64,000 nt of DNA from Candidatus Azambacteria bacterium (GTDB taxonomy: Bacteria; Patescibacteriota; Minisyncoccia; GWC2-36-17; WO2-46-25). Below the pieces are notes generated by a model. That model had not been told where the DNA came from. It saw nothing but the letters and a program-made list of their open reading frames with translations, and ran no database searches. The position numbers and the translations under genes are program-made. The stretch covers positions 2,121 through 66,120 of the forward strand of contig JACRAK010000007.1 of the NCBI GenBank assembly GCA_016234725.1. The letters run 5' to 3'. The first letter of the stretch is position 1; each line of letters starts with the position of its first letter. This document shows, in pieces, positions 3,421 to 16,190 of the stretch.

Positions 3421-6400
3421 TTAGAGCTGCTTCAAGAACCCGAAGATGTCCTGGAAGTTGGTGATGATAAGGTCGATCACGGTTTCGCCTTTCTTGGGCG
3501 TCAGGATGGTAAAGTCGGTCGAGCGTCCTTTGTTGTTGGACGGATCTGCCGACTCGACCTGGAAGCGGTACACCGCGCCCGGCTTGAAGCTCGTGATCAC
3601 CATCACATGGCTTGTCGTATACTCCTGGTCGAGCTTCGAGAATTCGACAAGGTCGCCTTTGCCCACGCCCTCTTTCCAGAATATCTGTGAAGTGGACGGC
3701 TCGTCCGTTTCCCAATAGATGAGCGTCTGCGTCCGTTCCGTTTTGCCCGGGAATATCGTGGACTCGGAGCGTACCTTGCTGATCACCGGCGCTTTCTCGT
3801 CCACCGTCGTGCGGATCGTGCCGATCACTTTGGAGGCGCGCGCATCGGTCACGTCCGCGCTCGATATCTCGATAAGGAAGTTGGTATTCGACGTAAGGTT
3901 CGCCACCGTCACTTCGTGGTCTTTCACGAATTCCGGCTTGCCCTGCGTCCTTGCTTCTTTGCTCAACAGCTCTCCGTCATCAAACGGCGTGTAGCGCACC
4001 TGCGAATTGGAAAGCGTGTTCGTCTTCCACACGACCGTGATGGAGTTTTCCGTGATGCGTTTGAATGAGTAATCAAGGATCTGCGGCAATTCCGGCTTGG
4101 TCTCAAACACAAAGTCGCGCGATTTGCCTTCCGGCCCCACTTTCGCCTGCGAACGGATCTGGAAATGATACGCCGTTGCGGGCTCAAGGTTCGGCACCGT
4201 CACGACGTGCGTCGTCACCTCTTCCCGCGGCTGGCCGACCTGCACGGTGTAGGGGTCCTTCGCATTCGGATCGTATTCGTCCTGCGGCACCAGCGCGATC
4301 AGCGAACCGGCCGGCTTGTTCGTGCGCCACGTCACCGTCGCTTTGTTCGAGTCGATATCCACCTGCGGCACGCCGCCGATGATCGCAGGCGGCACGACTT
4401 CCTGCGTGATCTCTGAAATGGTGTCGGTGATCTCGGTCGTCAACTCTTCAAGATCCGAAAGCGACACATCGGTGGACACGCTCTTGAGGATCGATTTGAA
4501 CCGCTGCACCGCGTCTCTGAGTGAATCCTGCGTCTTTGCCTTGCCGCGCAATTCTTCGAGTTCTTTTTTAAGCGATTCCAGATCTTCTTTCGCAAGCAAC
4601 GCTTCTTCTTCGACGGTAAGCGTCGTGAATGTCTGGTCGCCCGAGTACGCGCGATTCCCGCGCTGATCGGCGGACATCACTTTGAAATTGTATGCGGTCT
4701 TCGGATTAAGCCCCGACACCGTCACGGTATGATCGGTCGCCATTTCTTCCGAACCGGCGAGGCCCCCATAGTTCATCGTTACGCCGTATTTCACCAGCGA
4801 ATCGGCCGATTCGTCGGTCGTCCACGCGATCGTCGCCGCTGTCGCCTTGATGTCTTTGATCACGAGCGACGCGATGAGCGGCGGCGTCACATCGCCCACC
4901 TCTACGATGGTCCTGCCCACCGTTACCACGTCTTTTGCGATGGTGGCGCATGAAAGCGTCGCTGATACTTCGCCGCCGGAAGCGTTGAGTGACCGCACTT
5001 TCGCATAATAGGTCGTACTTTCGGTGAGGCCGGTGAACGTATTGGAGTGCGCGGTCACATAACCCGCCGCAGCGCGCGATGCGTTATCGATCGTCCCTGT
5101 CGGATACTGCGCAACCTGCGCGCCAGCTACGGTCGAGAAATAATTTGCACCGACATCAGCAGAAAGCAAGGAAAGTTCTGTCGTGGAGAACTGGTCGGTC
5201 GTCCACGTCACCGTTGCGGTGGAAGAGGTCGTGGAACATGCCGCCATCGTCGTTATTGCCGGCGGCGTTTGGGTGGTTGTTGTCAGAGAGCGGATCGTTG
5301 ATTCATCGTACTGCGTGTACGAATCGCTTGATGAGTTTTGGTCCGTAGAGCGCACTTTATAATAGTAGGTTGCCGAGTATGTCAGGTTCGGAATAACGAC
5401 CGTATGCACATACTGCCCGTTGCCGTCCGCCGAGGTTACCTGCGCGCTTGAACCGACTGATATCGGATTGACGAGCGCCGATGCGCTTGTCGTCGCGTAA
5501 AACACGATGGAGTCGGATGCCTTATCCGTTTTCCATGTAATAGAGGCAGAGTCAAACGCCGGCGTCGCCACGATGCTTCCGGAGACAATCGCGGGGCCAT
5601 TTTGCGTGGTGAATGTGTAGCCCGCATCCGACGCGCCTTCAAATGCGCAATTGCCCGTCGCATCGCACGACTCCGCGGCATACCGGTACTGCATGTTCTT
5701 GGTCAGATTTGAAAGCGCGATCGTATGCGTTGCGGGCGTGCTTGTCGCGACCGTGAGATAGCCGGGATTTCCCAACTTCGAGGTATATCGCTCGCGGCCA
5801 ACTTTTCCGCTATTCACGTTATTCGTGAAATCCTGCTGTGTCGCAAAATATACCGCGGCATTCGTCGCGCCCGACGCGCCATCCGTCGCGTTAAACGAGA
5901 CCGTCGCCGATGTCGCCTTCACCAGCGAACTCGCCACGTTCGTGACCACCGGCGCCGTAGCGTCATTGCCGCCGCCTCCTTCGCCGAGATTTACCGCCCC
6001 GTCCGGTTTCGCCGTCGTCGAGGCATTCGAACGAATGGACGTATTGCCGTTTGCCGCGGTCACGCCCAAGCGATACCGATAATACAGGTTCGTATTAAGA
6101 TTCTGATGCACATAGTAGTTGGTGGAAATGCTCGTGATCGGCGTCGTAGCGTTTATATAAGAAGAAAATGTCGTGTTGTTGGTCGATGTCGCGTATTCGA
6201 TCTTATATGAAGCGAAATCAGACGATGTCGCCGTTTCCCACCCGATGAATAAGCGCCAGTCGCTCGTGCCAACCTTGGAAACATCCTGCACCAAAAATGA
6301 GCTTGATGCCGCCGGCATGATCGTCGATGCGGTGGATGTTGCCGCGGTGTTCGCGTACGGGTCGCGTACCTGCACCTTCAATGTCTTTACTTCAAAATCG

Positions 6401-9400
6401 CTGTCAAATGTCCATGCTCTCGTGCCGGGTGTCGTAAATGTGGTCCACGGGGTCGAGCTTGCGGTCGAATGTGTTGCCGCATCATCAGCGATCATATACT
6501 GCGCCGTGCTTGTCGCATCGCCCGATGTCGACATGCTTACCGTTGCGCTTCCGGTCTCGCCCGCCACACCCGCATCGAATGTAAACCCGAATGTCGGCGC
6601 GACATTGTCAATAATGACGTTCGCGGATGAGTCGGTCGAGGAAACGCTCTGCGACGAAAGCTGATTTGCGAGATTATTATCATGCACAAGCACGCGCACC
6701 TTCGCGGTGTAATTTGAATAATTTGCAAGTTGCGATTCCGCCCGTTGATTCCATACAATTGATTTACCGGTTCCTTTCGTCACCGAACCGACATCGCCTG
6801 TTGTTCCGCTCGCCTTTATCCATACCGTGGTGCCGGAAGAATACGCTTTCGTGTGCCGCGTAGAAGCGCCCGGCCACGAAAGGTCGCTTGAACCGCGCGT
6901 CAATGTGCCAAGCGTCGTGCCGTTCACGATCGCGGCATATTTCACCACTTCAGTACCTATCTGCACATACCCTGACGACGGCATTTTTGATGTATCCGAT
7001 ACGGTCAGCGTCGTCGTGTTGTCACTGGTTAAAGTTACGCCCGCATCATAAAAAAGATATGCTTCGTAGGCATCGCTTGTTTCCGATGGATCATCGGCAA
7101 GATCATACGTCACCGTAACTTTCCCGGCATCAGCTACCGTGGCGCCATTGGTCGTCGCCGCCGTGGTCGCAACAACATTCGTCACGGTCGGTGCGGTATT
7201 CACCACATACGTCACGCTCGCGCTCGCAACATACGGCGCATTCAAATAATTAGAAGAAGGAATAAGCGTGATGCGATACTGATACCACTGGTCATTCGAG
7301 CCGTCGGCAAGCGCCGCGGGGATAGTTGAGAAAGTGTTCAGCCCCGTTCCTGTCGCGACCCAATATGTGTCAACGCCCGAAGGGCCGTACCATGATGCCG
7401 CAGAAAGTCCGCCCGATGCCGATGCGGTGCGCACCTGTATCTTTGCCGCGGTACCTGTTGGCAGTGTACTGACACTCATACGCACATCACCGATCACATT
7501 TGCAGCAGAACCGGAATCATACGGGGAAGAAATAAGCGTATAGCCGTTCGTGCTATCGAGCGGCTTTAGATAATTTACGGTTATGTCGTTTAATTGTGGC
7601 GTTGACCCACCATCGGTGGTCTGGAGTATGGCATCATATTGAAACCATCGGTCACCAGATCCGTCGGTCAACGCAGTGTTTGCAATAGCCCCCCTATTAT
7701 TCGCATCGACAAAATAATCGGTGCCGGAACAATTTGTCGGACCGCACCATGATGCCGTCGCAAGTCCCGAAAGCGAACTTGCGGTACGGATACGGAATTT
7801 CAAAACTGCACTACTTGACGTTACCCCACTCCAGCTGATCGAAGATATGCCGTTGCCGTCATTTTCGGTATCAAATGGCGAAGAAACAAGTGAATAATTA
7901 GTACCGGGAGCAGCAATAGGATATTGCTGATATGAAACGGTAATATCGCTCAATGATGGCGTTGTGTTGGCATATACAACGGTGCCTGTCGTAGATACGA
8001 ACGCCTTATATCGGAAATATCTGTTGCCGTTGATGATACTTGCAAGCGCGGATTGTATAATACATGTCACCGCATACGGATTCGAACCGGTCACTGTACA
8101 ATTTGTATTGTCTTTACTGAATTTTGAAGTACCAGACAGCGAACCGACCGCAGTTGTTGATCCATCGTAATTATAGTATGTCCACGGTCCGCTTGCGCTA
8201 TTTGAAGATGCAACCTGTATGTCTAGATCGGTGTTTGCCGGCTGGTTCAAATTAAACGCAAGTGAAGAAATGGTTGCTGCACCCCCAAGATCAATGACTC
8301 CTGATTCAAAATTTCCCGAAGTGGCGTAATTGTCCTTGGTGTTGAATCGTCCAGAATTAGTACCAAGCTCCGCTGCGACAAAAATATTGCCGTTGTCTAT
8401 AGAAACTATTGATGATTCACCGAATACTGAAACACCCCATGGATTCGGATACGTGGTCGACAAATTAGTCCATGCACCGCTTGCAATAGTATATTTCGCG
8501 AAATAGGGAGCAGAGTTATAGAAGGAATAAAGGGTGCCGACTCCATCAAAGACAATGTATCCGTAATTTAACATTGCGTTAGACGATGTCAGATCGGTCC
8601 ACGTATTTGAAACGATATTAAACTTGGCAAAATCTGTAGGAGCGCCTCCTACAAGCTGATGGGCAGAAATATAAATATCTCCATTCACGCTATCATGCGT
8701 CATGCTCGCGGCACCAACCGTCCACGGCAATGGTTTGGTAGCTGTTAGATTTGTCCACACGCCGGTCGCGGTATCATACTTCGCAAATTGTGCAGTTGGA
8801 GTGCTTCCTCCTGCACCAGCAAGATAAAGAGTACCGCTGCCATCGGAAACTAGAGCGCCATTGGATACAGAAAATGGTGGGGGATTCGTGCTGGTGAGAT
8901 TTGTCCAGGTGTTTGTTCCCGGATTATATTTGGCAAAATTAGTAGTCCCCAATCCCCCTATAACAAAAATATTTCCCGTGACGCTATCATACACAACTCC
9001 TCCTCCGCCCACGTTAAATGGTACCGGTTTCGTGCTTGTAAGATCCGTCCATGCATTTGACATTACGCTATATCGTGCAAACCCGTTAGTAGAATACCCT
9101 TTCACGCTATAAATTGTCGCATTGCCGTCATACGCTAATCCGCCAATGTAACTGTTATAAGGAACTGGAGCAACTTCAGTGAGATTAACCCACGCATTAG
9201 CTGATATCTCTTTATATAAATTAACGCTGCCCGCACCCGCTGATCCATTTACCTCGGTGCTTGAGTTGGTGCCATTATAAAAACCAAGTCCATTTACCGA
9301 TACGCCTGCCGCTCCGCTATTTGCGCCACTTCCGCCGGTCACTGTGGGAGCTGAACCCGATACACTCCCTCTCAAAATAACTCTTCCTCCACCTCCTCCG

Positions 9401-10695
9401 CCGCCGCTAGCCGAAGAACCGCTGCCGCCTGCGCCGCCGCTTGCGGAAATAACGCCGCTGTTTGAGATGCTTGCACTTGTTAATTCTATTCTTCCTCCTG
9501 CGCCGCCGCCGCCGCCAAATGTACATCCGGTACCGCCTGCGCCGCCGTTTTCGGTTACCGCACCAGTCACTGTAATGTTGCCGCTACTTATTATTTTAAG
9601 ATATCCGCCACCTGCGCCGCCGCCGCCACCTGGATTATATGTGCTATTTCCACTACCGCCGCCGCCACCTGCGCCGCCGAGTTCAAGATTATACGCGGAG
9701 CTACCCCTCCCGTAACTTGTACCGCCGCCATTGCCGCCTGCGCCCCCATATCCGCCGCCGCCGCCGCTACCATAAGTACTGTAACCTCCCATACCGCCAA
9801 CAGTACCAGCGCCACCGCCACGCCCTGAATTCCCATTTGTATAACTTCCGGATGTCCCAGATCCGCCACTACCGCCATTATACCCGCCCGCAACACCCGT
9901 TGCACCAGCACCCGTTGTTCTTCCCGATACTCCACAATTTGTCGCACTACCACCGTTCGCACCATTGAGATTAATGGTACCGCTGACAGTGACATTTCCT
10001 GTGGCATTGATAGTAATGGCCGTAGAACCGGTCGCGGTTAAGGTAACTCCAGAATCAATATTAAAAGAAGTATAATTATAAGTTCCCGCGGCAATTACAC
10101 AATTCGGCGCAGTGCCGCTGATACCGGTGCCACTGCATGAACTAGTGGTCAGATTGACCGCTCCATCAGTGCCCGTGCCTCCACTAAAAGTAATCGCCGC
10201 CGATCCAGTAGTGGTTAACGTGCCGTCATCCGTAACAGTACCGTTTACAACAGCAAGCCGTAAACCCCCTGGCGTAGTTGTATAATCAATATGTGCATCG
10301 GTGGTGCTTGCGCTTGTCCACCCGGTTTGGTTGCTGGTGTGATTTGCAGAAGTCGTTTGATTCACCGACGACCAAGTGGTCTGTGCGAAACTGCCCGTCG
10401 AGGTGGCGACGGTCAGATCGGTTCCCGTAGTAAGATACGACGAGCTGGTGGAATAAAAGCTCGTCACACCAGTTTGTGCCGCACCACCCGTGTGGCCTGC
10501 AGTCGCATTGGTATCGGCAGAGGCCGCCCAATCATTTTGCGTGAACGTGAAGCTCGCCGCGAGCGCGGGAGCAGAAGGTGTAAGCGTGACGCTCACCACG
10601 TTCACCGCGACAAACGCAGTGACAAATATTTTCCTCACAAGACCTTTAAACTTTGAAGCTTTTAAACTTCTGCTCCCCTTTCCACCTCGACTCAT
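3421..10695 (-). CDS. giant surface protein (2424 aa): N-terminal signal/TM anchor, long Gly-rich low-complexity tract, Kelch-like beta-propeller repeats (FAKY..W.NLT), multiple Fn3/Ig-like domains, C-terminal coiled coil
   Basis: single uninterrupted ORF; N-terminal hydrophobic segment VTAFVAVNVVSVTL...ALAASFTF; recurring ~50-aa FAKYN.GTNTWT.LTS repeats; Fn3-like blocks (ITWKTD...YYYKV). Confidence 0.8.
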   Translation of the reverse strand: MSRGGKGSRSLKASKFKGLVRKIFVTAFVAVNVVSVTLTPSAPALAASFTFTQNDWAASADTNATAGHTGGAAQTGVTSFYSTSSSYLTTGTDLTVATSTGSFAQTTWSSVNQTTSANHTSNQTGWTSASTTDAHIDYTTTPGGLRLAVVNGTVTDDGTLTTTGSAAITFSGGTGTDGAVNLTTSSCSGTGISGTAPNCVIAAGTYNYTSFNIDSGVTLTATGSTAITINATGNVTVSGTINLNGANGGSATNCGVSGRTTGAGATGVAGGYNGGSGGSGTSGSYTNGNSGRGGGAGTVGGMGGYSTYGSGGGGGYGGAGGNGGGTSYGRGSSAYNLELGGAGGGGGSGNSTYNPGGGGGAGGGYLKIISSGNITVTGAVTENGGAGGTGCTFGGGGGAGGRIELTSASISNSGVISASGGAGGSGSSASGGGGGGGRVILRGSVSGSAPTVTGGSGANSGAAGVSVNGLGFYNGTNSSTEVNGSAGAGSVNLYKEISANAWVNLTEVAPVPYNSYIGGLAYDGNATIYSVKGYSTNGFARYSVMSNAWTDLTSTKPVPFNVGGGGVVYDSVTGNIFVIGGLGTTNFAKYNPGTNTWTNLTSTNPPPFSVSNGALVSDGSGTLYLAGAGGSTPTAQFAKYDTATGVWTNLTATKPLPWTVGAASMTHDSVNGDIYISAHQLVGGAPTDFAKFNIVSNTWTDLTSSNAMLNYGYIVFDGVGTLYSFYNSAPYFAKYTIASGAWTNLSTTYPNPWGVSVFGESSIVSIDNGNIFVAAELGTNSGRFNTKDNYATSGNFESGVIDLGGAATISSLAFNLNQPANTDLDIQVASSNSASGPWTYYNYDGSTTAVGSLSGTSKFSKDNTNCTVTGSNPYAVTCIIQSALASIINGNRYFRYKAFVSTTGTVVYANTTPSLSDITVSYQQYPIAAPGTNYSLVSSPFDTENDGNGISSISWSGVTSSSAVLKFRIRTASSLSGLATASWCGPTNCSGTDYFVDANNRGAIANTALTDGSGDRWFQYDAILQTTDGGSTPQLNDITVNYLKPLDSTNGYTLISSPYDSGSAANVIGDVRMSVSTLPTGTAAKIQVRTASASGGLSAASWYGPSGVDTYWVATGTGLNTFSTIPAALADGSNDQWYQYRITLIPSSNYLNAPYVASASVTYVVNTAPTVTNVVATTAATTNGATVADAGKVTVTYDLADDPSETSDAYEAYLFYDAGVTLTSDNTTTLTVSDTSKMPSSGYVQIGTEVVKYAAIVNGTTLGTLTRGSSDLSWPGASTRHTKAYSSGTTVWIKASGTTGDVGSVTKGTGKSIVWNQRAESQLANYSNYTAKVRVLVHDNNLANQLSSQSVSSTDSSANVIIDNVAPTFGFTFDAGVAGETGSATVSMSTSGDATSTAQYMIADDAATHSTASSTPWTTFTTPGTRAWTFDSDFEVKTLKVQVRDPYANTAATSTASTIMPAASSSFLVQDVSKVGTSDWRLFIGWETATSSDFASYKIEYATSTNNTTFSSYINATTPITSISTNYYVHQNLNTNLYYRYRLGVTAANGNTSIRSNASTTAKPDGAVNLGEGGGGNDATAPVVTNVASSLVKATSATVSFNATDGASGATNAAVYFATQQDFTNNVNSGKVGRERYTSKLGNPGYLTVATSTPATHTIALSNLTKNMQYRYAAESCDATGNCAFEGASDAGYTFTTQNGPAIVSGSIVATPAFDSASITWKTDKASDSIVFYATTSASALVNPISVGSSAQVTSADGNGQYVHTVVIPNLTYSATYYYKVRSTDQNSSSDSYTQYDESTIRSLTTTTQTPPAITTMAACSTTSSTATVTWTTDQFSTTELSLLSADVGANYFSTVAGAQVAQYPTGTIDNASRAAAGYVTAHSNTFTGLTESTTYYAKVRSLNASGGEVSATLSCATIAKDVVTVGRTIVEVGDVTPPLIASLVIKDIKATAATIAWTTDESADSLVKYGVTMNYGGLAGSEEMATDHTVTVSGLNPKTAYNFKVMSADQRGNRAYSGDQTFTTLTVEEEALLAKEDLESLKKELEELRGKAKTQDSLRDAVQRFKSILKSVSTDVSLSDLEELTTEITDTISEITQEVVPPAIIGGVPQVDIDSNKATVTWRTNKPAGSLIALVPQDEYDPNAKDPYTVQVGQPREEVTTHVVTVPNLEPATAYHFQIRSQAKVGPEGKSRDFVFETKPELPQILDYSFKRITENSITVVWKTNTLSNSQVRYTPFDDGELLSKEARTQGKPEFVKDHEVTVANLTSNTNFLIEISSADVTDARASKVIGTIRTTVDEKAPVISKVRSESTIFPGKTERTQTLIYWETDEPSTSQIFWKEGVGKGDLVEFSKLDQEYTTSHVMVITSFKPGAVYRFQVESADPSNNKGRSTDFTILTPKKGETVIDLIITNFQDIFGFLKQL

Positions 10696-10726: not shown

Positions 10727-10757
10727 AATTCCTACGAGGTGCGACCTCGTAGGAATT
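10727..10757. repeat. REP-like palindrome, variant copy 4 (aattcctacgaggt-gcg-acctcgtaggaatt)
   Basis: same acgaggt/acctcgt core as the RAYT REPs with a different loop; sits between the giant-gene start and the HEPN gene stop. Confidence 0.75.
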
Positions 10758-11184
10758 ATTTTATTTTTCCCAATACAAACTCCTTAATTTTCTTTGCCGC
10801 TTCATATGCCTTTCTTGCTTCTTGAAATGTAAACTCGGGGTAATCTCCTGTATATCGGGTCTCTACATAATATCTATTAAGGAGAACAAGATCGTCTTCA
10901 TAATTCTTGATCTCTTTTTCATAGTGCAATAATAGGTCTTCTAATTTTAACAAGTCATGTATTTTGGGAAATCTTTTATCATAAAACACAAGCATTCCTT
11001 TTAGGTATTTTTCCGCCATTTGTTGTGAAAGAAAGCATGCGGTGCTTGGCGCGCCGCGCTCATCTCTTAAAATTGCGCCGATAGAGAGCTCATCCTCTTG
11101 CGCTTTCTTAAACAATTCGTGATGTTTTGTTTCATTATTCATTGCCATATAAAACCTTCCCTTTTTCAAAAATATCTTCCACAA
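10756..11184 (-). CDS. HEPN domain protein (toxin-like partner of the upstream nucleotidyltransferase); true start probably an internal Met near 11148
   Basis: HEPN (PF05168-like) motifs QQMAEKYLKGML and LLNRYYVETRY; overlaps the MNT gene. Confidence 0.7.
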   Translation of the reverse strand: MWKIFLKKGRFYMAMNNETKHHELFKKAQEDELSIGAILRDERGAPSTACFLSQQMAEKYLKGMLVFYDKRFPKIHDLLKLEDLLLHYEKEIKNYEDDLVLLNRYYVETRYTGDYPEFTFQEARKAYEAAKKIKEFVLGKIK

Positions 11185-11452
11185 AAAAATCCTTCAATTC
11201 CATTCTTTTTTGCACTTGTGCCGGAGTATATACAATTAAATCCATTGCGAACTGCCTTGGAAAAACAAAGCGATCTATTTTTCGCGCCATATCCCTCGTG
11301 TTTTCAGTTTCCTTCACAATAAACAAATCTACATCGCTGTCTTCGGTAGGGTTTCCCCACGCGTAAGAGCCGAAAAGAATAATTTTTTCCGGATTATATT
11401 CCTTGCCAATCCTATCCGCTGTTTCCTGAATTTTTTCAAAAGCTATTTTCAT
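11135..11452 (-). CDS. minimal nucleotidyltransferase (MNT, Pol-beta superfamily) paired with HEPN
   Basis: GSYAWGNPTEDSDVDLFIV = GS..G..x(n)..D.D nucleotidyltransferase motif; 105 aa. Confidence 0.8.
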   Translation of the reverse strand: MKIAFEKIQETADRIGKEYNPEKIILFGSYAWGNPTEDSDVDLFIVKETENTRDMARKIDRFVFPRQFAMDLIVYTPAQVQKRMELKDFFVEDIFEKGKVLYGNE

Positions 11453-11457
11453 TTTTA

Positions 11458-11604
11458 TTATTTTCTCCTGGCATCCATGTACAAGCGCAACGCCTGGCGG
11501 ATGAATTCGCTCTTTGTCTTCTCCTCTTTTTTCACCAGCTGCGCCGCCTCTTTCTCAAGCTTAGGGGGCAACGATATCACCCACACTTTTCTCTGGATCG
11601 CCAT
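11458..11604 (-). CDS. ribbon-helix-helix (CopG/MetJ-like) small DNA-binding protein, 48 aa; not in the ORF track (<60 aa)
   Basis: manual translation MAIQRKVWVISLPPKLEKEAAQLVKKEEKTKSEFIRQALRLYMDARRK; stop 6 nt upstream of the MNT start. Confidence 0.55.
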   Translation of the reverse strand: MAIQRKVWVISLPPKLEKEAAQLVKKEEKTKSEFIRQALRLYMDARRK

Positions 11605-11739
11605 ACTGTATTACTTTGTATTACATACCCCTTCTCCCCCTTCTTTCTTTTTCTAGATTCTAAATCCTAGATTCTAACTTCTATGTGCTGTATTACTTTC
11701 ATTATACATACAACGAAAATAATAGGGAAATCCGCATAG

Positions 11740-11750
11740 TGTGGATAACT
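11740..11750 (-). promoter_or_regulatory. DnaA-box-like 11-mer AGTTATCCACA (reverse orientation)
   Basis: tgtggataact; one of four identical 11-mers in the window. Confidence 0.5.
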
Positions 11751-11865
11751 TCCTTATTCACATTTCTGACTTCCCTATCATTTCCTTATTCCTCATGAGG
11801 GAAGTCGGATTTCACTCACCAATAAAAAAGCTCCTCGTACATGAGGTGCTTATGCTCTGTCTATT

Positions 11866-11886
11866 CTCTACTCCCTACTCGCTAAT
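11866..11886. repeat. GTAG-repeat family copy (tctactccctactcgctaa) at the yraN 3' end
   Basis: nearly identical to cctactccctactcgctaat at 56786-56806. Confidence 0.6.
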
Positions 11887-12256
11887 GTATGTTGATATTC
11901 TCTATATGCCGTATCTCGGCTTCCCCGCTTACATCGTCAAACACTGCAGAAATGCTGTCCATCTGCCACTTTTGCTCAGGGGAGATCTTGCGCACGAACA
12001 AAAACATCTCGACTGTCCTGGCGAACTTTCTCAGTTTATGAAAGGTGATGTTTTCCTCCGGCGCGATGTAACTCCCCTTCTTTACGCTCTTTACCTCCAC
12101 AAAAACAATATCGCCGCCAGGACTTCTGGCGACGACATCTATCTCTCCGAACTTCGTATTAAAATTGCGCTCAATTATCGAATACCCTTCAGAAATAAGA
12201 TATTCTGCCGCTTTTTCTTCCCCCGTATTTCCCGTTGCGCGCCTTTGAGTGATCAT
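11882..12256 (-). CDS. yraN: YraN family (UPF0102) endonuclease; start moved to the Met at 12256 because the track's N-terminal extension is encoded by tRNA-derived repeats
   Basis: EKAAEYLISEGYSIIERNFNTKFGEIDVVA...VFVEVK matches UPF0102; upstream 144 nt of the track ORF are tRNA fragments. Confidence 0.75.
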   Translation of the reverse strand: MITQRRATGNTGEEKAAEYLISEGYSIIERNFNTKFGEIDVVARSPGGDIVFVEVKSVKKGSYIAPEENITFHKLRKFARTVEMFLFVRKISPEQKWQMDSISAVFDDVSGEAEIRHIENINIH

Positions 12257-12262
12257 CTTTTG

Positions 12263-12297
12263 TGGACTCACCGGGAATCGAACCCGGAACTCAGCAA
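12263..12297 (-). other. orphan 3' half of tRNA-Ala (anticodon-stem 3' strand to discriminator), preceded by GC-rich leader TTTAGGCGGGCAGG
   Basis: 35 nt identical to positions 38-73 of the adjacent complete tRNA-Ala. Confidence 0.8.
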
Positions 12298-12316
12298 CCT
12301 GCCCGCCTAAATTTTG

Positions 12317-12387
12317 TGGACTCACCGGGAATCGAACCCGGAACTCAGCAATGCGAATGCTGCGTAATACCATTTTACTACGAGCCC
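12317..12387 (-). tRNA. tRNA-Ala (anticodon CGC)
   Basis: hand-folded cloverleaf: acceptor GGGCTCG/TGAGTCC with G3:U70 Ala identity pair, D-stem GTAA/TTAC, anticodon stem CAGCA/TGCTG, loop TTCGCAT, T-arm CCGGG-TTCGATT-CCCGG. Confidence 0.8.
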
Positions 12388-12418
12388 TTTTAAAGTCCAC
12401 AAAACTTGGGCGGGTGAA

Positions 12419-12452
12419 CGAATGCTGCGTAATACCATTTTACTACGAGCCC
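12419..12452 (-). other. orphan 5' half of tRNA-Ala (positions 1-35, ends ...CAGCATTCG), followed by 31-nt element TTCACCCGCCCAAGTTTTGTGGACTTTAAAA (12388-12418)
   Basis: 34 nt identical to the 5' half of the complete tRNA-Ala. Confidence 0.8.
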
Positions 12453-12483
12453 TTTTAAAGTCCACAAAACTTGGGCGGGTGAA

Positions 12484-12519
12484 CGAATGCCGCGTACTAC
12501 GACTATACTATGAGCCCCC
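12484..12519 (-). other. orphan 5' half of a different tRNA (GGGGGCTCATAGTATAGTCGTAGTACGCGGCATTCG), followed by the same 31-nt element (12453-12483)
   Basis: tRNA-like acceptor, D-arm and anticodon-stem 5' strand ending at TTCG, then an identical junction sequence. Confidence 0.65.
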
Positions 12520-12613
12520 TCTTTTCTTTTAAAACGAAATCATTATAATGCATGCATTGCAATTTGACAACTTCATACTACCAAAATCGTTTTAACGAAA
12601 AAGGAGGTGTCTT

Positions 12614-12982
12614 ATGATGGACAAAAATGAAAGAGAGATACTTGTCAATGCTCTAAAGGTTATAAAGGGAACTCGTTTCATTCCTCACGTATATTCAAAC
12701 ATGGCCTACAATAGCCGAGAATATACTGATGCCGTCGACGCATTGGTGAAGCTTTCCGGGGACAATGAAATCAGGGAAAAAGCGCAGCACTACGCCTTAA
12801 AATGGGAAGAGCGATTGAAGGAAAGAGGGGAGAAGGATCTCAAAGAATCAACAAAAAACGGCACTGGAAAGACGTTAAAGATACTAGGGGGATGTCTTTT
12901 TGCGCTTGCCGCGATTGGCACAACCGCGGGGATTGTGCATCATAGGAGAAAAAAAAATGAACAAAAGAAAACAGGGGAATAA
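12614..12982 (+). CDS. hypothetical protein with C-terminal transmembrane segment
   Basis: strong SD AAGGAGGTG 7 nt upstream; 122 aa; C-terminal hydrophobic stretch ILGGCLFALAAIGTTAGIV. Confidence 0.55.
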   Translation: MMDKNEREILVNALKVIKGTRFIPHVYSNMAYNSREYTDAVDALVKLSGDNEIREKAQHYALKWEERLKERGEKDLKESTKNGTGKTLKILGGCLFALAAIGTTAGIVHHRRKKNEQKKTGE

Positions 12983-13055
12983 TCCCCTGTTTTCCATTTT
13001 TTGCGTTTCTTTAAACTTCCAGATTCTATTTTCTAGTTTCTAGATTCTGCCTTAA

Positions 13056-13095
13056 TGGTCGGAATGCCGGGAATCGAACCCGGATTACACGCACC
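13056..13095 (-). other. orphan tRNA 3' half with encoded CCA (GTGCGTG-TAAT-CCGGGTTCGATTCCCGG-CATTCCG-A-CCA), preceded by leader TTTAGGCGGGTGAGAGG
   Basis: T-arm identical to the tRNA-Ala T-arm; its acceptor strand has no partner in the adjacent complete tRNA. Confidence 0.65.
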
Positions 13096-13123
13096 TCTCA
13101 CCCGCCTAAATTTCGTCTTGTTG

Positions 13124-13194
13124 TCGGGGTACTCGGAATCGAACCGAGACCACACGCACCCGAAGCGTGCGTACTGCCACTATACTATACCCCG
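13124..13194 (-). tRNA. tRNA-Pro (anticodon CGG)
   Basis: hand-folded: acceptor CGGGGTA/TACCCCG, anticodon stem CACGC/GCGTG, loop TTCGGGT, T-arm CTCGG-TTCGATT-CCGAG. Confidence 0.75.
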
Positions 13195-13450
13195 AAACTT
13201 TGGCGGGCGGGGCGTGCGTAATGCTTCACCCTCCCACCTTTTACACATATTAACTCCTCTAGAAACCAATCACCAATTCTGCTGGACGCTATGCAACTGC
13301 GTGCAGATGTAAAAAGGCGGGAGGGCAAGCTATACCACATTCCGAAATCCCCTATTTTCACACACCCGAAACGTCTTATGCGGGCTTCTCCGATAATGCG
13401 CCTTTTCGGGATATGTTACCATTTCCCGAAAACCCGCGCTATACCTGCTG

Positions 13451-14989
13451 TTACACGCGAAACTTCCTCTGTTCTTCCTCCTCAAGCAACTTAACCTTCT
13501 CCTCGCCTTTCTTTATCATCTCCGAAAGCTCGCTGATAGAAAACTTATCCAACACAACCGCCCGCGCTTCCAGATAATCTTTATCGTTTTTTTGCGGGTC
13601 GTCAAGAACCTCTGAAAACAAGGCATTGAGAATGACCCCCACTTTCGGCCCCGGCGCAATGCCCAATATCCGCATCACCTCGTTTCCGTCAATTTTGAGC
13701 ATTTTAACGGAGATCGGGTCTTTTGACACCTTCTCGACCATATACCTGAAATGGCGCAATTTATAGGGCTCCGCCTTTGGCACGCCCGACCCTATCCTAT
13801 CGGCAAACCGAACATTGACGAGATCGTCCATATTTTCAAGCCCGACATTCCGTACCAGCCGCCGCACGGAAGACGCCGTCACCTCGTCTACATTATAGTA
13901 AAAGAGGTGATAGCGGATGAGTCGCGCGACATCCTCGATTTCCTTATTCGAGAACTTCAATCGGCTCATCGCCTGTGCGGCGATGCGCGCGCCGATCATG
14001 TCGTGGTTGTAAAACGTGGCATTCGGTCCCTCGCCCTGTTTTGCCTTCGGCTTCCCAACGTCATGGAGCAACGCCGCAAATCGCACCGTAAAACTAAACC
14101 CTTGCTCTGCGGCATAGCGGAGCGATTTTAAATTATGCTCATACACATCGAATATATGGTGTTTGTTTTGTGAAACGTGATACCCGTCAAGCAATTCCGG
14201 CAAAACGAAATGCAAGAGCCCGACCTGGCGCAATAGATCGATGCCGTCTGCCGCGTTTTTGCACATGACTATTTTTATGAGTTCGTCGCGGATGCGCTCG
14301 TGTGAAACAACGCGAATGAGAGCGGCGTGTTCCTTAACCGCGACGAGCGTTTGTTCTTCTATGGTAAACTCAAGCTGTGTCGCAAATCGCACCGCGCGCA
14401 CCAAGCGCAACGCGTCTTCATTGAACCGCTCACTTGCGTTTCCAACCGCACGCACTATTTTTTCTTTCAGGTCTTTTTGTCCACCGAATGGATCGATGAT
14501 CGTGAAACGTAAATCCTGAATCTTGGAGCTTGCATCTTGAATCATGGATCTTGAATCCTGGGTTTCGGGTTTCAAGTTTTGAGTTTCAAGATCGAGCGCC
14601 ATCGCGTTGATCGTAAAATCTCTCCGCGCAAGATCTTCTTGTAAATGCGTCGTATATTGCACGCTGTCCGGATGGCGTTTGTCGGAATATGCATTATCGA
14701 CGCGATATGTCGTGATCTGAATTTCCATGCCGTCAATGAACGCGGTCACTGTGCCGAATTTGTTTTCGTAAAAACTTTTGGGGAACACTGCCTGTACTTC
14801 CTCCGGCTTCGCGTTGGTCGCCACGTCCCAATCATTCGGTTCGCGCCCGAGCAACACGTCGCGCACGCAACCGCCGACGGCATACGCCGCAAATCCCGCG
14901 CGCGCCAGCTCGCTCCCGACGTACATCACTTCTTTCGGAATTACCTCATGCATGCGCATACTATAATACGCTAACGCGCTCCGGCGCAA
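13451..14989 (-). CDS. cca: CCA-adding tRNA nucleotidyltransferase (head domain + HD domain), carrying an in-frame ~25-aa repeat-derived insertion
   Basis: GGCVRD...DWD, RDFTINAMA...IIDPFGG and HD-domain HDVGK motifs; insertion LETQNLKPETQDSRSMIQDASSKIQDL between them. Confidence 0.85.
   Translation of the reverse strand: MRRSALAYYSMRMHEVIPKEVMYVGSELARAGFAAYAVGGCVRDVLLGREPNDWDVATNAKPEEVQAVFPKSFYENKFGTVTAFIDGMEIQITTYRVDNAYSDKRHPDSVQYTTHLQEDLARRDFTINAMALDLETQNLKPETQDSRSMIQDASSKIQDLRFTIIDPFGGQKDLKEKIVRAVGNASERFNEDALRLVRAVRFATQLEFTIEEQTLVAVKEHAALIRVVSHERIRDELIKIVMCKNAADGIDLLRQVGLLHFVLPELLDGYHVSQNKHHIFDVYEHNLKSLRYAAEQGFSFTVRFAALLHDVGKPKAKQGEGPNATFYNHDMIGARIAAQAMSRLKFSNKEIEDVARLIRYHLFYYNVDEVTASSVRRLVRNVGLENMDDLVNVRFADRIGSGVPKAEPYKLRHFRYMVEKVSKDPISVKMLKIDGNEVMRILGIAPGPKVGVILNALFSEVLDDPQKNDKDYLEARAVVLDKFSISELSEMIKKGEEKVKLLEEEEQRKFRV
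14511..14590. repeat. tandem ATCTTGAAT-type repeat block lying in-frame inside cca
   Basis: gaatcttggagcttgcatcttgaatcatggatcttgaatcctgggtttcgggtttcaagttttgagtttcaagatcg; related to blocks at 45784-45905 and 46341-46450. Confidence 0.7.
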
Positions 14990-15789: not shown

Positions 15790-15904
15790 AAGCTTATGAA
15801 AAGATGTAGCGCACGGTGGGCGCGTACTATGCATTGTGCAACCATAAAAAAGGTGGTATAAAAGCCTGGTATCGTTATCGTATTTACTGCGCGCGCGCCT
15901 GTAG

Positions 15905-15979
15905 CTCAACGGATAGAGCGCATCCCTGCGAAGGATGAGACCGAGGTTCAATTCCCCGCAGGCGCACCAATAGCATTTC
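15905..15979 (+). tRNA. tRNA-Arg (anticodon GCG) with encoded CCA
   Basis: acceptor GCGCCTG/CAGGCGC, D-arm GCTC-AACGGATA-GAGC, anticodon stem CATCC/GGATG, loop CTGCGAA, T-loop TTCAATT, one A-C mismatch in the T-stem. Confidence 0.7.
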
Positions 15980-16121: not shown

Positions 16122-16144
16122 CGTTCAATTCCCCGCAGGCGCAC
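16122..16144 (+). repeat. 23-nt direct repeat of the tRNA-Arg 3' end (gttcaattccccgcaggcgcacc), att-like scar
   Basis: exact copy of 15956-15978, about 165 bp downstream. Confidence 0.75.
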
Positions 16145-16190
16145 CGAAGCAAAACCCTCTCGCACATACGCGCGAAGGGGTTTTGCACAT

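Follow-up and report, generated by a model that had tools for sequence, protein, structure and literature searches.

The tRNA-Pro locus

The stretch of DNA analysed here, in the following called the window, comprises 64,000 nucleotides of contig JACRAK010000007.1 from a bacterium, Candidatus Azambacteria (Patescibacteria), and its subject is a small non-coding inverted-repeat element found inside a tRNA-Pro and a tRNA-Ala gene that lie 800 bp apart. The tRNA-Pro locus adjoins the gene for the CCA-adding enzyme (13451-14989), whose product is 100% identical to an NCBI protein listed under Candidatus Azambacteria, and, read along the minus strand from 13344 to 13056, consists of three pieces of one tRNA-Pro(CGG) gene, the resident, separated by two inserts, E2 and E1, of which E1 carries a complete second tRNA-Pro(CGG) as cargo. 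Labels such as L123 denote loci or contigs that were fetched for comparison.

13330-13344, minus: resident tRNA-Pro(CGG) nucleotides 1-15, CGGAATGTGGTATAG; first piece, 15/15 identical to the uninterrupted tRNA-Pro of L123, L126 and L121
13225-13329, minus: element E2, 105 bp in the resident D loop; CTTG, then CCCTCCCGCC ... GGTGGGAGGG, then TGAA, with a non-tRNA interior
13212-13224, minus: resident tRNA-Pro nucleotides 18-31, GCATTACGCACGC; second piece, 12/13 identical to the gene of the relatives
13195-13211, minus: left junction CCCG and left arm CCCGCCAAAGTTT of E1
13124-13194, minus: complete tRNA-Pro(CGG) carried by E1, CCA not encoded (ARAGORN; Rfam 61.8 bits)
13096-13123, minus: right side of E1, with linker CAACAAGACG, arm AAATTTAGGCGGG and junction TGAGA
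13056-13095, minus: resident tRNA-Pro nucleotides 36-73 with the CCA; third piece, no differences from the resident genes of L123 and L126
12966-12995, minus: terminator-like hairpin downstream of the locus, common to a convergent gene of 122 amino acids; a homologous hairpin follows the tRNA-Pro of L126

The complete gene, described already in an earlier note on this DNA, is called on the minus strand from 13123 or 13124 to 13194, and it alone is recognised by ARAGORN and Rfam, the outer pieces being left uncalled; it is presumably the working gene. The arms that enclose it form an inverted repeat of 27 nt at 78% complementarity, and those of E2 (13229-13242 and 13312-13325) one of 14 nt at 93% complementarity, 69 nt apart. 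E2 takes the place of the dinucleotide TG in the resident D loop, ...TATAG-TG-GTATTAC. Reading the letters of the locus confirms the string TTTAGGCGGGTGAGAGG and the fragment GAAGCATTACGCACG that passes into CCCCGCCCGCCAAAGTTT, and directly after E1 the third piece reads GGTGCGTG...CATTCCGACCA on the minus strand. Omitted from the earlier note were the true 5' start, CGGAATGTGGTATAG, and the whole of E2.

Resident and incoming genes

Relatives were chosen by way of contigs encoding a CCA-adding enzyme 85-88% identical to that of the window (86-88% for L123, L126 and L121), and gene order is conserved among them. The relatives stem from the Hainich wells H41/H52, and the organism of the window is present in SRR12113407. 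In L123, plain genes for tRNA-Pro(CGG) and tRNA-Ala(CGC) come after that of the enzyme; in L126, the closest relative found (88%), the tRNA-Pro is plain too, and the trailer and terminator behind it are those of the window; the tRNA-Pro of L121, in which the CCA is likewise encoded, is uninterrupted as well. E2 is not present at any of these three empty sites. Since MAFFT placed the tRNA-Pro of the relatives on the inner copy and not on the outer pieces, the pieces were compared directly, and together they match the relatives' resident gene at 64/65 positions, as opposed to 56/71 (79%) for the inner tRNA-Pro, which differs in the acceptor stem (CGGGGTA as against CGGAATG in the resident type) and in the T stem and whose 15 differences include compensated stem changes. 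The 3' half with its CCA is therefore native and the complete tRNA incoming, so that the outer pieces are the resident gene and the inner tRNA is a newcomer that arrived with the element. The position that had been reported for the 3' half, 13056-13095, is correct, but its designation as foreign is not. The 5' half of the incoming type is found as a plain resident tRNA-Pro in the metagenomic contigs L130-L133 and L135, which are Patescibacteria-like in appearance, and in L131-L133 and L135 this gene follows an open reading frame that by eye resembles the C-terminal part of a CCA-adding enzyme. In L134 a tRNA-Pro with the same 5' half is itself nested between other inverted repeats.

Judged against the empty sites, we can conclude that the tRNA-Pro locus results from insertion and not from decay, E1 having apparently entered the anticodon loop and E2 the D loop of the resident tRNA-Pro(CGG). 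Furthermore, all three tRNA genes of the window bear insertions, those in tRNA-Pro and tRNA-Arg occur in none of the relatives examined, not even in L126 at 88%, and the arm-flanked element at the tRNA-Ala locus is likewise missing from the relatives, of which L126 and L121 have partial 5' duplications of their own there. This distribution shows the element to have been recently active in this lineage.

The tRNA-Ala locus

The second locus repeats the layout of the first on the same strand:

12542-12570, minus: promoter-like TTGTCA-17-TATAAT upstream of the outermost 5' half, 11/12 consensus positions; the same site precedes the Ala array of L126
12484-12517, minus: outermost tRNA-Ala 5' half, type A, nucleotides 1-35; 30/34 identical to the plain tRNA-Ala(CGC) of L123
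12388-12483, minus: TTCA, left arm CCCGCCCAAGTTTTGTGGACT and TTAAAAG, then a type B 5' half, then junction, arm and linker again
12317-12387, minus: complete tRNA-Ala(CGC), type B, the cargo (ARAGORN, Rfam)
12298-12316, minus: right arm CAAAATTTAGGCGGG and junction CAGG
12263-12297, minus: outer tRNA-Ala 3' half, nucleotides 38-73, identical to the 3' half of the cargo

Here the element carries a tRNA-Ala(CGC) and occupies the anticodon loop of a tRNA-Ala identical to its cargo, with an older 5' half further upstream, and this outermost type A half is, by its similarity to L123, a remnant of an older resident tRNA-Ala gene. A unit of 65 nt, in which TTCA and the arm CCCGCCCAAGTTTTGTGGACT are joined by a short linker to a type B 5' half, occurs twice in tandem at 100% identity, the second 5' half continuing into the complete tRNA-Ala(CGC), and the 3' half forms part of a 40-nt direct repeat, likewise at 100%, whose copies are spaced 54 nt apart. 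The type B tRNA-Ala is identical to the working tRNA-Ala of L121 at 70/71 positions and to type A of L123 at 52/71, and it serves L121 and L126 too, where it lacks the arms. The arms form an inverted repeat of 21 nt at 90% complementarity around the complete tRNA.

The claim that the two loci share their layout and the motif pair CCCGCCAAAGTTT/AAATTTAGGCGGG, each pair placed around a complete tRNA, is borne out. Indeed AAATTTAGGCGGG is found exactly at 12302-12314 (Ala) and 13101-13113 (Pro), and its inverted partner, with two mismatches, at 12402-12414, 12467-12479 and 13195-13207. At up to two mismatches the arm motif has 8 matches in the window as against 2.7 expected, a number reached by 0/100 shuffles.

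A family of palindromic elements in Patescibacteria

A search of one genome per prokaryotic species for the two arms at a distance of 70-100 nt found the pair at at least 119 loci, whereas about 0.15 matches would be expected by chance according to our own estimate, and these loci, in which the arms bracket about 70-100 nt, belong nearly all to Patescibacteria and represent many lineages of the phylum. The counts of copies given below (n=122) are among the matches listed, and the analyses of arm motifs and neighbouring genes cover 815 kb of fetched loci. Of the 267 arm motifs found in these, 244 are in pairs, and hence the motif rarely occurs unpaired. The elements are 96-121 bp long, with a peak at 103-107 bp, and conform to the consensus (TTYA)CCCGCC-YAAR-TTT(T) ... 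(A)AAA-YTTR-GGCGGG, in which TTYA is the consensus of the four bases outside each arm and the 13-bp arms are prolonged inward by 0-8 perfect pairs. A few 'empty' hairpins consist of the arms alone (L076, L097). Up to 9 of the matches listed come from one genome, and some of the several copies in a genome have interiors that are 87-100% identical at different loci. At arm position 10, A-T is found in 58 copies, G.T or A.C in 63 and G-C in just 1, so that G-C is avoided, and at position 7 an A-type arm nearly always stands opposite a T-type arm. On the sense strand of the tRNA, position 10 is G.U nine times and A.C only twice. It may be added as an observation in its own right that the two arms of each copy are systematically non-identical, as though left and right ends must differ.

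When the open reading frames of the at least 119 loci were clustered, the recurrent neighbours were housekeeping genes only (EF-G, S7, S12, pilus ATPase), and a search of 2.9 million viral contigs returned no copy of the element. A literature search on the arm sequences, bacterial split tRNAs, transposable elements of the miniature inverted-repeat kind (MITEs), REPINs, nested tRNAs and Patescibacteria introns found no description of it. The possibility that the non-tRNA interiors are degraded tRNAs was discarded, as neither relaxed ARAGORN thresholds nor the T-loop motif showed an excess over shuffles, and a search for excision footprints of the TTCAAG type in tRNA-like hairpins of the fetched loci gave 626 matches, indistinguishable from noise.

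The earlier note had tied a local duplication to motifs confined to the two loci and missing from close relatives. The motifs are indeed absent from the close relatives at both loci, which are empty sites, but they recur at at least 119 loci, and with this spread far beyond two sites local duplication is excluded for the tRNA-Pro locus.

Target sites and junctions

A complete tRNA lies inside 25 of the 122 copies, and all 25 sit between fragments of a disrupted tRNA gene in the same orientation as the cargo, host and cargo being of the same isotype wherever enough of the host remains to assign it. The break point falls in either the D loop or the anticodon loop, and now and then in the T loop. 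Together with the clean genes in the closest relatives and the at least 119 loci, these 25 nested tRNAs uphold the notion that a targeted and recurrent process, rather than random decay, is at work. The CGN anticodons pointed out for both complete tRNAs are real, but lose their relevance in view of the other hosts among the matches listed, which are Val, Met, Arg, Leu, Glu and Trp genes, and the statement that every 5' half ends in TTCG holds for the three Ala copies but not for the Pro fragment, which terminates in ...CACGC, and D-loop insertions occur as well.

In 15 of the copies listed the junction reads TTCA, element, CAAG or the reverse complement thereof, and when the outer halves are set against the inner copy, or against empty sites, the rule emerges that a CA in the host loop (TG on the other strand) is replaced by TTCA-element-CAAG, the orientation of the junction following the CA-bearing strand and not the orientation of the cargo. 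E2 obeys this rule at the TG of the resident D loop, as confirmed by the empty sites; E1 has the variant junction CCCG...TGAGA and its host loop contains neither CA nor TG. Target duplications of 2 bp or 4 bp, central dinucleotides of serine recombinases, overlaps of tyrosine recombinases and the tetranucleotides of insertion sequences (IS) of the IS200/IS605 type were considered as sources of the TTCA...CAAG junction, and none yields it. Four-base direct repeats flank 12 of the 122 copies (CATA/TATG eight times, CAAG/CTTG three times, TCAA once); these copies carry no tRNA, and the insertions in tRNA loops have no such repeat. The nesting is recursive in L070, L082 and the tRNA-Ala locus of the window, and broken outer copies gather other small GC-rich hairpins (L013, L016, L048, L067).

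Copies that lie between genes and carry no tRNA are typically found 41-47 nt upstream of a start codon. All eight copies with TATG repeats coincide precisely with a start codon and have a TATG at either end (L002, L004, L025, L032, L047, L055, L100, L114). In these the upstream ATG reads ATG-CCC-GCC-TAA, a mini-ORF (open reading frame) of three codons that ends in the left arm, and the right arm (..TTTAGGCGGG) puts AGG 5 nt before the real ATG, a layout that may preserve translation through termination and re-initiation. At 16 loci, among them L001, L011, L040, L051, L072, L104, L108 and L118 and including rpsL-rpsG-fusA spacers, the element is the middle one of a module of three hairpins that fills the spacer from the stop codon (TAAGGGCTTTGT...) to ...ATTGGC-ATG, and the flanking hairpins of the module are conserved across genomes. 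Finally, copies are found at hairpin tips of rRNA, namely in 16S rRNA (L078, 1313-1420), 5S rRNA (L089, 7391-7496, and L096, 3947-4054) and 23S rRNA (L105, 2153-2273). These are candidates for the short unclassified rRNA insertions of the Candidate Phyla Radiation (CPR), some of which the family may account for.

Relation to known systems

The element is reminiscent of several kinds of small repetitive DNA. REP sequences and the REPINs formed from them are mobilised by RAYT transposases (PMC3116915, PMC3337134). Like REPINs, the element is about 100 bp long, non-coding and multicopy, consists of two conserved inverted units about 70-110 bp apart with a spacer that together are predicted to form a hairpin, has a conserved tetranucleotide at the foot of each arm and lacks an internal transposase. 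The tetranucleotide is however TTYA rather than GTAG or CGTC, the interiors are unrelated, the targets are loops of tRNA and rRNA genes and start codons and not extragenic sites only, some copies carry a tRNA, and no RAYT was seen near the copies examined. With MITEs it shares terminal inverted repeats, small size and the lack of coding sequence, and assignment to this class was rejected on the shared interior and the autonomous IS parent that go with it. Correia/NEMIS elements of Neisseria and the Rickettsia palindromic elements are 100-150 bp in size, have terminal inverted repeats, are co-transcribed with their surroundings and fold on themselves, and Correia elements are furthermore substrates of RNase III. 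The likeness is that of a small palindromic element tolerated inside transcribed or functional genes, but the interiors of those elements are conserved and they carry no genes; to our knowledge none of them brings a replacement for the gene that it disrupts.

Integrative elements with tRNA genes as their targets measure kilobases, have an integrase gene of their own and duplicate nothing but an att segment, the working tRNA being chimeric. They resemble the present element in their target, in that the incomer keeps a working tRNA and in that a displaced fragment remains, but here the incomer measures about 115 bp, carries an entire tRNA and splits the resident without duplication; no integrase is encoded among the neighbouring genes (ten proteins scanned, within the 64-kb window), and the tRNA-Pro locus shows neither an att duplication nor a chimeric tRNA. 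The attC sites of integrons are imperfect palindromes, 57-141 bp long, whose ends are conserved and whose centre varies; they act as folded single strands and lie between genes. The element in contrast has no RYYYAAC/GTTRRRY boxes, its arms being CCCGCC-YAAR-TTT, forms no cassette arrays and has no integrase, and its copies are dispersed singly in operons and RNA genes.

In archaea, split, permuted and intron-containing tRNA genes are processed at a bulge-helix-bulge (PMC4390854, PMC4033280, PMC4090602). Halves that are broken at or near the anticodon loop and flanked by pairing GC-rich complementary sequences are common to both, but the present host is a bacterium, the halves flank a complete tRNA and in seemingly older examples they have decayed. 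Lastly, the rRNA genes of Patescibacteria contain many short ORF-less and unclassified insertions of less than 200 bp at the tips or bases of stem-loops (PMC11270868). These come from the same phylum and the same host genes as the copies in 16S, 23S and 5S rRNA, which occupy similar places, yet neither the present repeat pair nor the nesting of one tRNA in another is described there or in the work on tRNA introns of the phylum (PMC13011429, PMC11270868). The element behaves like a palindromic miniature insertion element of the REPIN, Correia or Rickettsia kind and, as integrative elements at tRNA genes do, makes good the damage that it causes, yet it lacks defining features of each of these, as well as of MITEs, archaeal split tRNAs, attC sites and group I introns, and we file the element as a miniature palindromic mobile element that is unusual in its targets, the loops of structural RNA genes, and in its cargo of whole tRNA genes.

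Proposed mechanism

We consider it probable that the element belongs to a family of non-coding inverted-repeat elements of about 105-115 bp spread across Patescibacteria, that in the present genome it has inserted into the loops of tRNA genes, and that copies with a cognate tRNA replace the gene that they destroy. Insertion relative to empty sites, the conservation of arms and size, the agreement between cargo and host, the junction rule and recent activity are demonstrated by the comparisons above, and a mechanism joining them may be outlined as follows. As the element lacks coding capacity, the enzyme that moves it would have to be encoded elsewhere. The moving form is probably a folded single strand, as for REPINs or the hairpin elements derived from IS200/IS605, with a preference for exposed loops of hairpin DNA, a suggestion made on account of the hairpin form, the loop preference and a size too small to circularise as a duplex. 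The loss of a single-copy tRNA gene through insertion should kill the cell if the element does not bring a working tRNA of the same identity, and such a viability filter would explain why tRNA-bearing copies occur only in cognate genes and copies without cargo, such as E2, only in genes that are already dead, just as selection for expression would explain the uniform orientation of the cargo. The cargo would be transcribed from the resident promoter; at the tRNA-Ala locus there is only one strong promoter-like site, upstream of the outermost fragment. Folding predicts the arms and the acceptor stem to form one long helix enclosing the cargo tRNA at the two loci (z = -5.0 and -3.9), and this helix together with RNase P and RNase Z, possibly also RNase III, might release the tRNA. 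Neither cargo encodes CCA, so that the CCA-adding enzyme encoded next door would be needed to complete it. The outer halves would then be nonfunctional remnants, prone to decay or to loss when direct repeats recombine, and the direct repeats made by nesting could permit tandem amplification, as of the 65-nt unit, as well as deletions, through which the type A 3' half of the resident may have gone at the tRNA-Ala locus.

Several points are in poor agreement with this reading. No transposase or recombinase was found beside any copy examined in the fetched loci, nor any long element with the same arms in their 815 kb, and the interiors are mostly unrelated even within one genome, unlike in a classical MITE family. 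The arms are often mismatched at positions 7 and 10, with no covariation, and at tRNA sites there is no target duplication, two bases being replaced and six added, in agreement with no transposition chemistry that is known. The cargo and the outer halves at the tRNA-Ala locus are identical, so that self-insertion, a near-identical donor and local duplication are indistinguishable there. Furthermore, the acquisition of a precisely trimmed tRNA as cargo has no explanation in this model, the restriction of cargo to cognate hosts might result from homology-dependent spread instead of a viability filter, and expression of the cargo is argued from sequence and folding predictions.

More tentatively, and at most as a possibility, we may be dealing with unrecognised mobile DNA, a palindrome about 105 bp in length that finds exposed loops by their structure and whose tRNA-carrying form overwrites the cognate gene, becomes fixed since the cell then depends on the cargo, and moves between lineages by a chemistry unlike that of described enzymes, in which case the tRNA genes of the phylum would be serially replaced from outside. 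The spread over at least 119 loci points to an undescribed way of overwriting tRNA genes. If this holds true, essential single-copy tRNA genes of a large bacterial radiation are being overwritten by tiny cassettes that bring a replacement tRNA along, a natural example of gene replacement by disruption plus complementation, which would account for many 'tRNA fragments' in Patescibacteria, as well as for tRNA calls that were missed or look odd, and give the short insertions in rRNA genes a candidate identity. It would likewise imply an enzyme that recognises a 13-17-bp arm and inserts DNA in hairpin loops, with potential practical use. The reading moreover predicts that tRNAs are processed from long leader-trailer helices, which is testable in organisms that are becoming genetically tractable.

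Alternative explanations

A first alternative regards the arms not as transposon ends but as a processing stem. They could form the leader-trailer processing stem, in RNA, of promoterless tRNA units that spread by transformation and recombination and need no insertion enzyme, in good agreement with the long leader-trailer complementarity, of unrelated sequence, that is found around many Patescibacteria tRNAs (L110, L018, L003, L070 Gln, L053 Gly, L134), with the excess of G.U over A.C at position 10 of the sense strand, with copies at sites that are transcribed (in tRNA genes and rRNA genes or in 5' leaders, for instance), and with the lack of a transposase near them; a nested allele could indeed spread by recombination through its outer halves. 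Recombination between homologous tRNA genes cannot however be the origin of a nested insertion, no tRNA is contained in E2 or in 97 further copies among those listed, twelve copies are flanked by four-base direct repeats, and the conservation of the arm sequence across distant lineages, with its mismatches at positions 7 and 10, suggests that a protein recognises each arm more than it suggests a helix. We therefore regard a mere processing stem as rather unlikely.

Very unlikely is the idea of a new type of bacterial intron, excised from the RNA with restoration of the outer tRNA, much as in archaeal split or intron-bearing tRNAs, so that each locus would yield two tRNAs. The outer Pro pieces are intact (64/65), the outer tRNA of L013 keeps perfect acceptor, anticodon and T stems, the paired arms are predicted to bring the halves together, and group I introns are indeed found, and common, in Patescibacteria tRNA genes (PMC13011429). 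But since the insertion is missing in the 88%-identical relative, intactness may only mean recency, and in L021, L049 and L065, which look older, the 5' halves outside the cargo have been shortened or do not pair with the 3' halves any more, and the outer halves form no acceptor stem. In addition, removal of the insert cannot restore a 7-nt loop, as CA is missing and TT..AG added, and the joined Ala halves would leave a loop of 11 nt or 5 nt. By inspection, no bulge-helix-bulge with two 3-nt bulges and a 4-bp helix can be drawn at the Pro or Ala junctions, where 8 and 5 unpaired bases separate the anticodon stem from the arm helix and nothing is regular except for an internal loop, 2x2 CA/CA. 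The host being a bacterium speaks against an intron of archaeal kind as well, and an Rfam scan of 11600-13450 at E <= 1 returned the two tRNAs and sub-threshold noise, with no group I intron or other intron family.

An origin in place, by slippage or template switching at hairpin-forming tRNA DNA that gives rise to partial tandem duplications with no involvement of mobile DNA, has in its favour the exact tandem units of the tRNA-Ala locus (65 nt twice, and the 40-nt repeat spaced 54 nt) and the armless tandem 5' partial copies of tRNA-Ala, ending in the anticodon loop, in L121, L125 and L126. It is refuted for the tRNA-Pro locus, where the cargo differs at 15/71 positions including compensated stem changes, and the arms are foreign to the empty site and recur at at least 119 unrelated loci, so that it is very unlikely indeed as a general explanation. 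Highly improbable is likewise the view that the inserts are scars of prophages or islands that integrated at att sites in tRNA genes and were later almost wholly deleted. Transfer RNA genes are classic integration sites, crossover sites in the anticodon loop are known, and the tRNA-Arg(GCG) of the window has a 23-nt repeat of its 3' end around a 154-bp insert; but the resident tRNA-Pro is split without a duplicated att segment, its incomer is a whole different tRNA and not part of a chimera, more than 100 copies of one size of about 105 bp are not to be expected from independent deletions, and the lack of a nearby integrase and of copies in viral contigs fits this view poorly. An artefact of metagenome assembly from repeated tRNA sequence has a negligible chance of being the explanation, for although an independent assembly of the same organism (L120) breaks within the Ala repeat at window position 12287, the same architecture is found in more than 100 independent assemblies by different groups and assemblers and the tRNA-Pro locus has no long exact repeat to mislead an assembler. 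It is this locus, with its empty sites and divergent cargo, that weighs most strongly against all alternatives to the proposed insertion except the processing stem and the intron.

Further observations at the loci

Nested tRNAs are also found with other repeats. In other Patescibacteria, tRNAs lie within long and unrelated leader-trailer inverted repeats such as TCCCGTTAC/GTAACGGGA, TCCCGCACAAAA/TTTTGTGCGGGA and AT-rich repeats of 24-28 nt (L134 ~6090-6260; L070 1763-1835; L053 3686-3756; L110 3300-3372; L018 3041-3115), some of them again between tRNA fragments, and the arrangement of a tRNA in a hairpin in a tRNA is therefore not confined to one repeat family. The tRNA-Arg(GCG) of the window (15895-15969, plus strand) is followed by the 154-bp insert and by a second copy of its last 23 nt, 15946-15968 being repeated at 16123-16145; insert and repeat are missing in L121, L123, L124 and L126. 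Here a different small insert, one without CCCGCC arms, has given rise to an att-like duplication.

The relatives have dead 5' partial copies of tRNA-Ala (L121 5520-5650; L125 6646-6760; L126 6698-6960), which hold a conserved insert of 80-95 nt with two hairpins, CCCGTCA...GACGGG and ...TTTGT..ACAAA..GGGAxCA, between nucleotides 31 and 32; behind each partial copy stand the loop TTCGCAT, a duplicate of the native leader and the next tRNA copy. These arrays represent a second style of serial tRNA-Ala replacement that does without CCCGCC arms. Genes for small GIY-YIG nucleases (90-103 amino acids) are located beside the tRNA-Pro/Ala loci of relatives (L121 5090-5401; L129 5627-5899), the one in L121 being embedded in repeats of its own 5' region, and there is no such gene at the corresponding position of the window.

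Sets of tctagattct/tagaatctag repeats exist at 11640-11690 and 13017-13048, as noted before, but they are not part of the element; 6 matches compare with 2.3 expected, and 5/100 shuffles reach 6, a weak excess over chance. The copy at 13017-13048 is the native trailer of tRNA-Pro, recognisable in L126. The set at 11640-11690 lies about 600 bp from the tRNA-Ala locus in the 5' leader of a ribbon-helix-helix (RHH) gene, where the relatives have an unrelated 20 nt, and may be a small transferred segment or an operator. That gene, of which the product has 48 amino acids in L120, belongs to an RHH-MNT nucleotidyltransferase-HEPN module (10756-11604, minus strand) located directly downstream of the YraN gene near the tRNA-Ala locus, which is a putative toxin-antitoxin system; systems of this type are reported to act on RNA. 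Further along, at 3421-10695 on the minus strand, the window encodes a protein of 2424 amino acids with Kelch, fibronectin III and purple-acid-phosphatase N-terminal domains, which is unusually large for a reduced genome.

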